A stretch of 64,000 bases of DNA, taken from the IMG/VR virus record IMGVR_UViG_3300035208_008180. One strand, written 5' to 3'. The position numbers and the translations under genes are program-made. Source of the stretch: a virus. Lineage: Duplodnaviria > Caudoviricetes. This document shows, piece after piece, positions 12,727 through 50,649 of this stretch (positions within the stretch are counted from its first letter, which is position 1; each line of letters opens with the position of its first letter). The notes beneath the pieces were generated by a model. That model had not been told where the DNA came from and made no database searches. It was given only the letters and a program-made list of their open reading frames with translations.

Positions 12727-13212
12727 ATGAAATGTAAAGCCTGTGATAAATCAACAGACAATCCAAAATTTTGCTCTCTTTCGTGTGCGGCCACTTTCAA
12801 CAACGCCATCTCTCCCAAGCGATCAAAGAATAAAAAAATATGCAAAATGTGCGGTGGAAAAGTTAGTGGGCGTGGTGCATACTGTTCAAAAATATGTCAA
12901 AGCAACTTTAACTTCACAGAAAAAAGTAAAAATGGATATTATTATTCACCAGACCATAGTGGTAATACGAGATTTTTACGCAAATTTATTATAAGAAAAC
13001 ATGGAAACAACTGCATGATTTGCGGGCAATCTGGCAATGATTGGAACGGAAAACCAATTACACTCACTGTGGATCACATAAACGGACATGCCAATGATTG
13101 GTCTGTTCCAAACATAAGAATAATTTGCCCAAATTGCGATTCTCAACTACCAACATACAAGGGACGCAACAAAGGCAACAGCACCCGCAAATACACCATC
13201 ACGCAAAAGTAG
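12727..13212 (+). CDS. HNH homing endonuclease
   Basis: CMICG, VDHING, NIRIICPNCDSQ. Confidence 0.9.
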   Translation: MKCKACDKSTDNPKFCSLSCAATFNNAISPKRSKNKKICKMCGGKVSGRGAYCSKICQSNFNFTEKSKNGYYYSPDHSGNTRFLRKFIIRKHGNNCMICGQSGNDWNGKPITLTVDHINGHANDWSVPNIRIICPNCDSQLPTYKGRNKGNSTRKYTITQK

Positions 13213-13301
13213 GAGCGTAGGGAATCGAACCCTATATCTTTGGGTAATCAGCCCATAACGACGGGTATAAACCGCCTGCCTCACCATTTGGCCTCGCTCC
13301 C
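13210..13301 (-). tRNA. tRNA with TAT anticodon (nominally Ile) and long variable arm
   Basis: GGGAGCG/CGCTCCT-A; GGCGG-TTTATAC-CCGTC; V-arm TGGG..CCCA. Confidence 0.85.
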
Positions 13302-13315
13302 ATTCATTTCTCAAG

Positions 13316-13647
13316 TAGACCCGGTAGGACTTGAACCTACGACCAACAGATTATGCATACCACTATGACTTTCGCCACTCTTGCGATTTGTGGTCTGGAC
13401 TGTCTCTTCACTTTCGTGTTTGCCATTCAGTCTCTACACCTTCCACTTTGGTGGCTTGGCTCGGGATTGACATATTCTTTTCAGAACTTAGTTTTCCCCG
13501 AATTTGACAAATTCTACTATGTGCCTTCAAATGATATAATCATCTAAAAACTCATAGCAACCCAATGAAACAACTCCTGCAAAATGTATTTGTTTAGAGT
13601 TGCATCACAATCGAGTCTGCTGCTCTGACCAACTGAGCTACGGGTCC
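13316..13647 (-). tRNA. tRNA-Ile2/Met(CAT) split by a group I intron
   Basis: Exons GGACCCG..GCAGACT | CATAATCTGT..CGGGTCTA rebuild a cloverleaf. Confidence 0.9.
13356..13613 (-). mobile_element. ORF-less group I intron (258 nt) between U33 and C34
   Basis: P AAATTCGGGGAAA, Q AATCCCGAGC, R GTAGAGACTG, S AAGAGACAGTCC; P3 TTTGTCA/TGGCAAA; terminal G. Confidence 0.9.
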
Positions 13648-31477: not shown

Positions 31478-31982
31478 AAAAGCCAACGAATTGAATTCAT
31501 GCCTAGTTGCCGTAGCATTCGTTGGCCAAGGTCTTGTGACAATATTCCGTAATCATCCAAGACAGACAACATTCCTTTTATTTCATGCGTCTTGCCACTT
31601 CGGCAATCGTGTTGTGTGTTTTTATTTTTTCTAACTCACGCATCTTTCTGCTGTTGGAAAATTCATCCCATTCGTCTCCCAACTCCTCAGCCGAACTTAC
31701 TTCCACGCCAGCAATACACTGGAATCGCTGTGTTTCTTCAATCCATTGTTGCTTGTTTGGATTCATGATTCAATATTTTTCTAATGCCATGCTTTTTGTT
31801 GAGACCTGCAATTTCCTCTCTTGTCGCTGTATCTGCAAAATGATCGTAAACACAGCGTCCTACCCAGGTGCATCCCTTACGGGTGCAAACCTGAAACATG
31901 GTGCCGCCACCAATGTCATCAAAACCCACTTTGTGACCTAAAATTTTGCAAAGTGCAGTCATTTAACTTCCTTTGTTTTAAG

Positions 31983-32071
31983 CTCCGAAGGGAGGATTCG
32001 AACCTCCATACCGATTGAACGGATTACACGATGTTAACAGCATCGCCGCCTGCCAATTGGCGTACCTCGGA
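31983..32071 (-). tRNA. tRNA-Asn(GTT) with long variable arm
   Basis: CGATG-CTGTTAA-CATCG; 21-nt variable region. Confidence 0.85.
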
Positions 32072-32367: not shown

Positions 32368-32441
32368 AGGGGGAAGTGAGAATCGAACTCACTACCTTCG
32401 GCTTAACAGGCCGACGCATATACCTAATCAGCTTTTCCCCC
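32368..32441 (-). tRNA. tRNA-Asn(GTT), U73
   Basis: TCGGC-CTGTTAA-GCCGA. Confidence 0.8.
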
Positions 32442-32970
32442 GATTATCATAACACCTTTTAAGCAAGTGTTCTGGAACTTCTGTAACGCCATTGCCAACT
32501 TCGGCATGGCAATTAGCACACACCAAAACGCATTTATTTGCTTCCGACAACATAACTTCCCAACTTTTGCACAAACCTTGCTGCGAAAGTGAAAACTTTT
32601 TATCACAAACATGATGAAACTCTAATGAGCCCTGATATTTGTTGTAACCACAAAGCTCACACCTTCCCCCAAAGTGAGCGACCAATTTTTCTTTTCTTTT
32701 TACACGGCTCTTGGTCACAGCTTCCGATCTGCATTTTTTACATCGATATCCCTTGCAATCTCTCACAAACTCCACCGCACCGTGTTTTTTGCATATTGAT
32801 GGAACGAACTTGGCAGTTGCATCTATCGTTTCATATTCCAAGTTCTTTGTGTTGTGTCTGCCAAACGGAGAACAAGATAAACAAAACTTACGACGCTGCA
32901 AATTTCTTGCTTTTCCATCGACTATTGCTTCGAGCGGAAACTCCTCACCACACTTTTTACATTTTCTCAT
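32428..32970 (-). CDS. HNH homing endonuclease
   Basis: GGRCELCGY, LEFHH, KCVLVCANCHAE; GGAGG SD. Confidence 0.88.
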   Translation of the reverse strand: MRKCKKCGEEFPLEAIVDGKARNLQRRKFCLSCSPFGRHNTKNLEYETIDATAKFVPSICKKHGAVEFVRDCKGYRCKKCRSEAVTKSRVKRKEKLVAHFGGRCELCGYNKYQGSLEFHHVCDKKFSLSQQGLCKSWEVMLSEANKCVLVCANCHAEVGNGVTEVPEHLLKRCYDNRGKS

Positions 32971-33038
32971 ATATAACCTCCATGCTATATATGAGTAATA
33001 AACCAAATGTTTAACAAAAAATATTAAACATTTAGTAG

Positions 33039-33109
33039 AGCCACCAGTGGGAATCGAACCCACGTATCCACTTTACCGAAGTGGCACTCTACCATTGAGT
33101 TACAGCGGC
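33039..33109 (-). tRNA. tRNA-Thr(GGT)
   Basis: CCACT-TCGGTAA-AGTGG. Confidence 0.85.
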
Positions 33110-33723: not shown

Positions 33724-34065
33724 CTAAATCAACTTCATGCTTTTTTCAATAGCAAGTTCTCGTGATGATCCAATTAATTCGTAAAGCTGATCTGGCAAGG
33801 GGTCGCCCGATTCGGCTTTATTATGGCAACCCTCACAAAGACTAATGCCATTTTCCGCCACATAGCCACCATTCGGCATCGCATCCCTGTCAGTGATGTG
33901 ATGTGCATCCAACTTGGCTCTTGGAATGTCTAAACCTTCAAATTCGCCAGTTTGACTACATTTCCCAGGTTGGCCACAGACCCTACATGCATATCGATCT
34001 CTTTTGAACACAGCTTTACGAAAAACTGATCTTACCGTTTGTTTTTTATGCATGATTTTCTCCAA
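33724..34065 (-). CDS. HNH endonuclease
   Basis: VFKRDRYACRVCG, DAHHI, NGISLCEGCH. Confidence 0.85.
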   Translation of the reverse strand: MEKIMHKKQTVRSVFRKAVFKRDRYACRVCGQPGKCSQTGEFEGLDIPRAKLDAHHITDRDAMPNGGYVAENGISLCEGCHNKAESGDPLPDQLYELIGSSRELAIEKSMKLI

Positions 34066-34068
34066 AAG

Positions 34069-34142
34069 CGAGCGTGACGGGGGTCGAACCCGCTACCCCT
34101 TGATCGACAGTCAAGGATGCAAAACCGTTACACCTCACGCCC
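34069..34142 (-). tRNA. tRNA-Asp(GTC)
   Basis: CTTGA-CTGTCGA-TCAAG. Confidence 0.88.
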
Positions 34143-34145
34143 AAA

Positions 34146-34369
34146 ATTTGTCATCTCATAAGCGGAATTCTGTTTACAACCATCATTTATCTCACATTGC
34201 TGTGGTCTTTCGACTGCCTCTACCCGACTTCTCAGGGTCACTCACGCCCTCAGTCTGTTTGAGTTGCATCCTCGGTAGTTCGGACGAACAAAGTTCTCCT
34301 ACCTTAAAAGTGATGATGTTCCGACTTTCCTCTACGGATTGCTCCGCAGCGATGGTTCGGATGACAAAT
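34146..34369 (-). ncRNA. rnpB: minimal RNase P RNA (catalytic domain, S-domain nearly absent)
   Basis: GAGGAAAGTCGGAAC (CR-I) and AACAGAATTCCGCTTA (CR-V); P1-P7 and P15-P17 pair; L15 GGT; AGATAAA CR-IV. Confidence 0.88.
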
Positions 34370-34394
34370 GTATATTAGAGAAAATACGATTTAG

Positions 34395-34467
34395 AGCCAC
34401 CAGAGGGAATCGAACCCACGACAGGCTGATTACAAATCAGCTACTCTACCAACTGAGTTACGGTGGC
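34395..34467 (-). tRNA. tRNA-Thr(TGT)
   Basis: GCTGA-TTTGTAA-TCAGC. Confidence 0.92.
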
Positions 34468-50361: not shown

Positions 50362-50572
50362 TGTAAAAAAAGTCTATCTGCCCCTTGTTCTTGCAACCAT
50401 CGAGTCACCACCAAATGAAACACTCGGTGTATTTGCTCTGAAGTTAGTGGCTCCCCAGGTTTTTCATAATTAAAAAAACCTGCTTCCTTTAATTTGGCGA
50501 ACTCCAATTTTTCCAACAAAGATTTGGCGTCTTTGTCTTCAATGAGAATTACTTTCATCATTTCCTCCTAAG

Positions 50573-50649
50573 TCAGCGGGGCAGGATTCGAACACTGCGA
50601 CCTTCAGCTTGTTTATGGCTGATGCTCTGGCCAACTGAGCTACCCGCCG
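50573..50649 (-). tRNA. isolated atypical tRNA (9-nt anticodon loop, bulged T-stem)
   Basis: CGGCGGG/CCCGCTG-A; TCAGC-CATAAACAA-GCTGA. Confidence 0.65.

Follow-up and report, generated by a model that had tools for sequence, protein, structure and literature searches.

A short RNase P RNA within a phage tRNA array

We analyzed a 64,000-nucleotide (nt) stretch of viral DNA (IMG/VR record IMGVR_UViG_3300035208_008180), hereafter the window, which is the first 64 kb of contig C200; coordinates are window positions except where a contig is named. The window contains 31 transfer RNA (tRNA) genes, all on the minus strand, and among them, at 34146-34369 (-), lies a 224-nt homolog of ribonuclease P (RNase P) RNA of bacterial type A ancestry. 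The local order is Ala-Gly-Thr-[RNase P RNA]-Asp, with all genes on the same strand. The analysis described below confirmed that this element is a real, conserved, phage-borne RNase P RNA that lacks the specificity domain (S-domain).

An earlier note, made from the letters alone, had listed the helices and conserved motifs of a minimal RNase P RNA at this locus, and direct reading of the minus strand found every one of them in place. Its estimate of about 224 nt agreed with the length measured from P1 to P1, its estimate of about 20 nt enclosed by P7 proved to be exactly 20 nt, and the neighbors that it had named were recovered on the minus strand as tRNA-Thr(tgt) and tRNA-Asp(gtc). All helices were read as uninterrupted Watson-Crick or G.U pairs, and P4 was formed by AAG/CUU and CGGAA/UUCCG around a bulged U. 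The features of the locus are as follows; covariation refers to the alignment of 63 relatives described below.

34146-34369 (-): whole mini RNase P RNA, 224 nt from the P1 5' end to the P1 3' end; aligned end-to-end by the Rfam model RF00010 and, over 34157-34359, by our covariance model R1 (158 bits)
34360-34369 (-): P1 5' strand, 10 Watson-Crick pairs with 34146-34155
34146-34155 (-): P1 3' strand, ending 3 nt short of tRNA-Asp
34350-34357 (-): P2 5' strand, 8 base pairs (bp) with 34178-34185, one of them G.U; 7/8 pairs covary (63 sequences)
34332-34349 (-): P3 hairpin, 7 bp with a GCAA loop; its pairs covary, and the alignment is poor inside P3 since its length varies
34319-34332 (-): CR-I and P4 5' strand, GAGGAAAGUCGGAA, with the bulged U at 34324
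34159-34173 (-): CR-V and P4 3' strand, ACAGAAUUCCGCUUA
34315-34318 (-): P5 5' strand, 4 bp with 34267-34270; 4/4 pairs covary, 98.4% paired
34309-34313 (-): P6 pseudoknot 5' strand UCACU, 5 bp with AGUGA at 34238-34242 in L17; 5/5 pairs covary
34274-34303 (-): P7 and S-domain stub, in which 5 bp of P7 enclose exactly 20 nt (GA linker, 4-bp hairpin, 7-nt linker)
34218-34266 (-): J5/15 (CAA), P15, P16, P17 and L15; L15 is GGGUA, with GGU at 34222-34224, and P15, P16 and P17 all covary
34193-34214 (-): two small hairpins at the P18 position, GUC-GAAA-GAC and CACA-GCAA-UGUG (GNRA loops)
34184-34192 (-): CR-IV and J18-2, AGAUAAAUG; A-G and A-U-G conserved in 61-63/63
34394-34467 (-): upstream tRNA-Thr(tgt), 24 nt ahead of the RNA
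34068-34142 (-): downstream tRNA-Asp(gtc), starting 3 nt past the RNA

Alignment with bacterial type A RNase P RNA

The earlier note had described a type A RNA without the S-domain and had recommended a search with the Rfam models. In E-value mode, RF00010 (bacterial type A) matched 34143-34368(-) over model positions 1-367 with 58.6 bits (E 1.3e-17 in a 321-nt search), and a search of the whole assembly returned the same place with 67.1 bits; the match is far past chance. Among the members of the Rfam clan, bacterial type A gave the best score. The alignment ran end-to-end and skipped approximately 140 S-domain positions of the model, in place of which it held approximately 42 nt. The regions universal to type A RNAs were aligned at GAGGAAAGUC (CR-I), AGAUAAAUG (CR-IV) and ACAGAA...GCUUA (CR-V), and the elements specific to the type A catalytic domain (C-domain), namely the P6 pseudoknot, P16, P17 and the GGU of L15, were all found. 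Meanwhile, the specificity domain P8-P14 with its T-loop-binding module was not present, as P7 holds 20 nt only. In type A RNAs, the GNRA loop of P18 docks on P8; the RNA in the window has two GNRA hairpins at the P18 position, yet no P8. These comparisons support the assignment of the RNA as a bacterial type A homolog with an intact C-domain and an S-domain cut to a stub.

At the curated threshold, Rfam reported only tRNAs and one group I intron in the window. The minimum free energy fold of the RNA was no better than that of shuffled sequences (z -0.91), a null result that is expected because the RNA is pseudoknotted.

Conservation of the structure among relatives

The distance from CR-I to CR-V is approximately 270 nt or more in full-length type A RNAs and 149 nt in the RNA of the window. 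Relatives were sought in public collections with a pattern of CR-I and CR-V motifs at restricted spacing. Among IMG/VR contigs, the pattern was found in 1 at 95-125 nt, 13 at 125-155 nt, 19 at 155-185 nt and 22 at 185-215 nt. Elsewhere, the 125-155 pattern occurred in 39 stretches of species-representative genomes and in 112 stretches of metagenome contigs, 80 of which were retrieved as loci. An architecture of P5, the P6 strand, P7, a 'GA'-hairpin-linker, P7' and GCAA was common to many of the matches.

A covariance model had been proposed in the earlier note, and we built one. This model, R1, extends from P2 to CR-V over 179 positions with 35 base pairs; P4 and P6, which are pseudoknots, were not part of it, and P1 was left outside because a model including it was too long to calibrate. 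R1 matched the RNA of the window over all 179 positions with 158 bits, and this was its sole match in both the window and the whole assembly. It also recovered at least 63 non-redundant relatives (111-178 bits) from viral, metagenome and metagenome-assembled genome (MAG) contigs, with 57-73% identity to the RNA of the window. The lengths of the class were 188-263 nt with a median of 220 nt, close to the 224 nt of the RNA in the window.

In the alignment of 63 sequences, 93.8% of the pair cells held standard pairs, compared with 30-45% when the partners were slid by 1-3 columns, and double-sided changes were found at 40 of the 48 pairs. None of 500 shuffles attained any of the pairing measures. 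P16 covaried at 4/4 pairs and P17 at 3/3. In P4, 98.4% of the cells were paired and double changes were found at 4 of the 8 pairs; in P6, 92% were paired and all 5 pairs covaried. Because neither pseudoknot is part of R1, the pairing in P4 and P6 was not fitted by the alignment. P1, scored separately by a script, occurred in the same register in the relatives with unrelated sequences, at a median of 10 bp compared with approximately 6 in shuffled flanks. These compensatory changes in the aligned sequences indicate that the family is under purifying selection for RNA structure.

The invariance of CR-I and CR-V is true by construction, because the search pattern required both. Other motifs were not imposed by the pattern: the G-C-A-A of J5/15 was conserved in 62, 57, 61 and 63 of the 63 sequences, the G-G-U of L15 in 63, 62 and 60, and the A-G…A-U-G of CR-IV in 61-63. 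In the stub, which in the window fits the layout of the class (GA-hairpin-linker), all 63 sequences share the G that closes P7, the A in the 'GA' linker (34297-34299) and the A before the P7 3' strand (34279), whereas the hairpin and its loop varied freely; selection in the stub seems to act on the junction and not on the hairpin. The suggestion that P18 had been replaced by two GNRA hairpins was fair for the RNA of the window but did not extend to the class, since 52 of the 63 relatives have just 2-4 nt at this site and only 11, including that of the window, have two covarying mini-hairpins.

We also compared the RNA of the window and a consensus-like relative with 50,697 GenBank phage records by blastn, which returned no match; blastn is too insensitive for this purpose, because the covariance model did find the homolog in phage DLP6 described below.

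Several other groups of RNAs were seen in the course of these searches. GC-rich members of the class recur in MAG contigs of Gemmataceae and Planctomycetia. Chromosomal RNase P RNAs with an equally short distance from CR-I to CR-V occur in bacteria of the candidate phyla radiation (CPR), namely Dojkabacteria, Saccharibacteria and other Patescibacteria (L041, L047, L052, L054, L062 and L074), and likewise in DPANN archaea (Iainarchaeum; L038, L056, L069 and L071). Unlike the phage class, the CPR and DPANN RNAs retain the S-domain 'ACAGAAA' (J11/12) module, and R1 gave the loci listed here 25-52 bits. In metagenome contigs (L145, L153 and L181), three tandem copies of a GC-rich short RNase P-like RNA lie approximately 470 nt apart; they belong to another class, open with CCCGGGCA after CR-I and are possibly of eukaryotic origin. 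Finally, 47 IMG/VR contigs (L213-L259), several of them 340-497 kb long, showed full-length CR-I to CR-V spacing and 1.16 tRNAs per kb. Judging from this spacing, some phages may carry complete RNase P RNAs; such RNAs of phages therefore seem to vary in size, the class of the window lying near the small end.

Phage origin of the contig and its host

C200, a myovirus contig, is 340,072 bp long with a GC content of 40.5%, and it was binned with a bacterial assembly of 6.25 Mb in 252 contigs whose median contig GC is 69%. Its genes include a contractile tail sheath, a phage-family DNA polymerase, a ribonucleotide reductase (RNR), an NAD-dependent ligase, a helicase and an SbcC-like nuclease; RtcB and NAD synthetase are encoded in the window. 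The tetranucleotide composition of C200 correlated with that of contigs C242 (0.987), C226 (0.982) and C102 (0.945), the four contigs amounting to approximately 557 kb. C242 carries the sole T4-type capsid gene (Gp23) and gp20 portal gene of the assembly, as well as a terminase. The prediction that the element is phage-borne was thus borne out by the tail sheath, DNA polymerase, RNR and ligase genes of C200 and by its grouping with the contig that encodes capsid, portal and terminase. Judging from gene content and composition, C200, C242, C226 and C102 probably derive from a single, very large T4-like phage that was wrongly binned with a bacterial MAG of 69% GC. The low-GC DNA in the bin amounts to approximately 1.08 Mb. 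An identical 1-kb stretch (zero differences) was present in single contigs of a groundwater study and a landfill study, one of which is possibly the source sample; therefore, the stretch is no assembly artifact.

The binned bacterium has its own RNase P RNA of 399 nt (265 bits, 71% GC) on a high-GC contig. Because the RNA of the window and this rnpB have only the universal CR-I and CR-V blocks in common, a recent capture from the binned bacterium was rejected. RnpA, the protein subunit, was found in the assembly on the bacterial high-GC contig C170 only, and the search for it returned none on the phage contigs or on any low-GC contig of the assembly, as the earlier note had observed for the sequence that it covered. 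The same note had regarded RnpA as probably borrowed from the host and had suggested assays with planctomycete RnpA. A planctomycete host was not supported, because no CRISPR-spacer-like or other exact match of at least 23 nt linked the phage to the high-GC contigs and because the element was present in 0 of 20 genomes of the bacterial family of the bin.

Comparison with known RNase P RNAs

The RNA of the window shares with bacterial type A RNAs (RF00010; E. coli M1 RNA/rnpB and T. maritima P RNA) P1-P5, the bulged U of P4, P6, P15-P16-P17, the GGU of L15, the GCAA of J5/15, CR-I, CR-IV and CR-V. It differs in that the approximately 140 S-domain positions (P8-P14) are replaced by the 20-nt stub in P7 and P18 by two mini-hairpins, and in its length of 224 nt compared with about 350-400 nt. 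Moreover, it lies in the tRNA array of a phage, and no rnpA was found beside it or elsewhere on the phage contigs.

A parallel with archaeal type T RNA had also been drawn. Type T RNAs are cellular and work with archaeal proteins. They are natural RNase P RNAs of approximately 200 nt that have likewise kept the C-domain and lost most of the S-domain, so the parallel holds in this respect. However, the C-domain of type T is of the archaeal kind, P2 has 3 bp, P15 is shortened and 2 nt link P5 to P15 (PMC3579882), whereas in the RNA of the window P2 has 8 bp, the linker is CAA (3 nt), P6, P16 and P17 are bacterial and L15 contains GGU. The likeness is one of analogy only, the two classes being convergent and unrelated.

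The engineered 'Eco CP RPR' (Mao et al. 2018, PMC5839562), the C-domain of the E. coli RNA alone, resembles the phage class in lacking the S-domain, in its need for a P6-like pairing and in the dispensability of P18; it is active both in the presence and in the absence of the C5 protein at reduced efficiency. Eco CP RPR was made in the laboratory, whereas the phage RNAs occur in nature, carry a conserved P7 stub with an invariant junction and are maintained by selection.

The camelpox virus RNA is also a virus-encoded homolog of RNase P RNA; unlike the RNA of the window, it belongs to a eukaryotic virus, mimics nuclear H1 RNA and has no link to viral tRNA genes. A related case in a cultured phage is that of Stenotrophomonas phage vB_SmaS-DLP_6 (DLP6; KU682439.2), in which we found a homolog of approximately 249 nt at 105774-106022 that was matched by RF00010 end to end with 54.7 bits and by R1 with 73.7 bits. 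This element (L210-L212) lies in an unannotated gap of a tRNA cluster and ends 3 nt ahead of tRNA-Arg(CCG). Like the RNA of the window, it is short and belongs to a T4-like phage; it represents a more distant sub-class (73.7 compared with 158 bits with R1), in a phage with a known host. The element is not mentioned in the DLP6 genome paper. The earlier note knew of no characterized phage example, and we found no report of a phage-encoded RNase P RNA in a 2024 RNase P review or in the full-text collection searched, which covers few papers from subscription journals.

Context of the tRNA array

The association with tRNA genes is a property of the family. The 63 family loci hold 389 tRNA genes in 399 kb, 387 of which are on the strand of the RNA. 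Of the 39 loci with a downstream tRNA, 21 have the start of one on the same strand no more than 30 nt from the P1 3' end (no more than 10 nt in 12). No promoter-like or terminator-like sites were found on the minus strand between tRNA-Ala and tRNA-Asp; the simplest reading is that of a single transcript.

The ends of the tRNA genes bear on how precursors might be recognized. Across the family, approximately 88% of 395 tRNA trailers begin with C (C74), and U is the commonest nucleotide at -1. In bacterial RNase P, C74 pairs with a G of L15; therefore, the retained L15 could still engage the phage precursors. A homolog of the CCA-adding enzyme is encoded at C200:175838-176203 (126 bits), with a weaker second one on C242.

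Other features of the array were also noted. Open reading frames (ORFs) for HNH endonucleases lie amid the tRNA genes at 33724-34065 (-) and 32428-33063 (-) (PF01844, 28.2 bits; PF21368, 24.5 bits), one of them directly downstream of tRNA-Asp. A group I intron at 13382-13551 (-) (RF00028, 63.9 bits, above the threshold) is located just upstream of tRNA-Ile(tat) at 13209-13301 on the same strand, a tRNA call that is unusually long at 93 nt. The tRNA-Phe call at 50572-50649 (-) has the unusual anticodon AAA, and the tRNA-Asn(gtt) call at 31982-32071 (-) is 90 nt long and adjoins a normal one of 75 nt. Of the ORFs that surround the array, the majority belong to no known family.

Proposed function and alternative explanations

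The data establish the homology, the selected structure, the phage location and the tRNA linkage, and transcription, catalysis and a protein partner are inferred. We propose that the element is a shortened type A gene with a full catalytic domain (P1-P5, P6, P15-P17, L15, CR-I, CR-IV and CR-V) and a specificity domain cut down to P7 and a small hairpin. The RNA would be co-transcribed with the phage tRNA array, and its 3' side would be freed when RNase P cuts at the 5' end (+1) of the abutting tRNA-Asp; cleavage in cis at this site would be unlikely on geometric grounds, as only a 3-nt tether leads from the end of P1. The RNA would bind host RnpA through the retained surface of P3, CR-I, CR-IV and CR-V and would cleave the 5' leaders of the many close-packed pre-tRNAs of the phage, recognizing the acceptor end (N-1 via J5/15 and C74 via the GG of L15) and not the T/D elbow. 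A function is strongly suggested, and the whole proposal, i.e., a phage catalytic RNA that teams with the RnpA of the host and processes phage pre-tRNAs by reading nothing but their acceptor ends, is in our view probably correct, though well short of certain. The E. coli C-domain is active by itself with and without protein, and in it the P6-like pairing matters while P18 does not (PMC5839562). The family shows the same priorities, with P6 conserved and P18 absent in 52/63, which speaks for this proposal.

Several observations weigh against it. The RF00010 score of 58.6-67.1 bits is lower than the gathering threshold of 100 bits, and Rfam in gathering mode gave no RNase P match; the lack of the S-domain alone accounts for this shortfall. 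By itself, the C-domain performs poorly as an enzyme in vitro (PMC5839562), and the only earlier viral RNase P-like RNA that we found in the literature, that of camelpox virus, was reported to be inactive in pre-tRNA processing in vitro (PMC3001073). The 31 tRNA genes of the window all lack an encoded CCA and have C-U after the discriminator (N73), and work on T4 shows that, for CCA-less phage precursors, a CCA end is what RNase P prefers (PMC11143913). No covariation between L15 and the type of trailer was seen beyond clade structure.

One alternative is that the phage matures its tRNAs autonomously, the RNA reading the acceptor end of uniformly tailed (N73-C-U) pre-tRNAs with an unrecognized phage protein or with none; we regard this as unlikely, though deserving serious consideration. 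In the related form of an autonomous ribozyme, free of protein or aided by an unrecognized phage protein, that serves as an orthogonal RNase P for the phage tRNAs, we regard it as decidedly unlikely. RnpA was not detectable on any low-GC contig, and the phage has a partly self-sufficient tRNA toolkit of CCA-adding enzyme, RtcB and group I intron; the N73-C-U of 31/31 tRNAs suggests a dedicated recognition signal, and the array-side ORFs are mostly without known family. Nevertheless, bacterial RNase P RNA needs unphysiological salt when free of protein, the C-domain alone is weaker still (PMC5839562), no candidate protein was identified and covariation of L15 with the trailers was not seen.

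Next, the RNA could be a non-catalytic decoy or regulator that soaks up host RnpA or competes for pre-tRNAs and thereby shuts down or redirects the tRNA maturation of the host. The protein-binding regions P3, CR-I, CR-IV and CR-V are kept, the phage contigs yielded no RnpA, engineered RNAs are weaker catalysts once the S-domain is lost (PMC5839562), and the role of a decoy has been proposed for the camelpox RNA, which was inactive in vitro (PMC3001073). However, a decoy has no need for the GGU of L15, the GCAA of J5/15, the bulged U of P4 or P6, all of which are near-invariant or covarying, and the strict embedding among same-strand tRNA genes fits processing; we consider a decoy improbable.

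We give little weight to a non-phage origin, in which the low-GC contig would belong to a small-genome cellular symbiont with a reduced RNase P RNA. The short distance from CR-I to CR-V in chromosomes of CPR and DPANN organisms and the approximately 1.08 Mb of low-GC contigs in the bin are compatible with such a symbiont, but C200 has genes for a tail sheath and for replication proteins of phage families, Gp23, gp20 and terminase lie on C242, its twin in composition, the class is found on IMG/VR contigs, and the RNAs of the CPR and DPANN organisms retain the J11/12 module and reach 25-63 bits with R1 compared with 158 bits. A decaying pseudogene, i.e., an rnpB captured from a host and now drifting after loss of the S-domain, is scarcely credible: the RNA is shorter than every cellular type A RNA and scores below the Rfam threshold, yet relatives at 57-73% identity retain every helix by compensatory changes, only CR-I and CR-V are common to the rnpB of the bin, and the stub architecture recurs in many unrelated contigs, the relatives not being assembly duplicates. 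We dismiss the reading of the plus-strand ORF at 34004-34378 as a real gene, since this ORF, which encodes 124 amino acids from a TTG start and spans the region, has no Pfam match and runs antisense through tRNA-Asp, and the relatives vary in the manner of an RNA, with compensatory pairs and loop insertions and deletions of arbitrary length.

Implications

Only two ribozymes are universal, and one of them is RNase P RNA, the two-domain design of which is found in textbooks. A natural and widespread bacterial-type RNA without the specificity domain shows the minimal working core under real selection. This core retains P6, L15, J5/15 and P4, with P18 optional, in agreement with deletion experiments. 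Because a relative sits in the cultured phage DLP6, the mode of action of the core and its protein partner can be tested at the bench. If the phage does mature its tRNAs autonomously, phage tRNAs would be processed even while the RNase P of the host is in short supply, switched off or under attack, and for the first time a natural RNase P of bacterial type would have been shown to function without reading the elbow. The element would also add a ribozyme to the translation genes of large phages, alongside tRNAs, the CCA-adding enzyme and RtcB.

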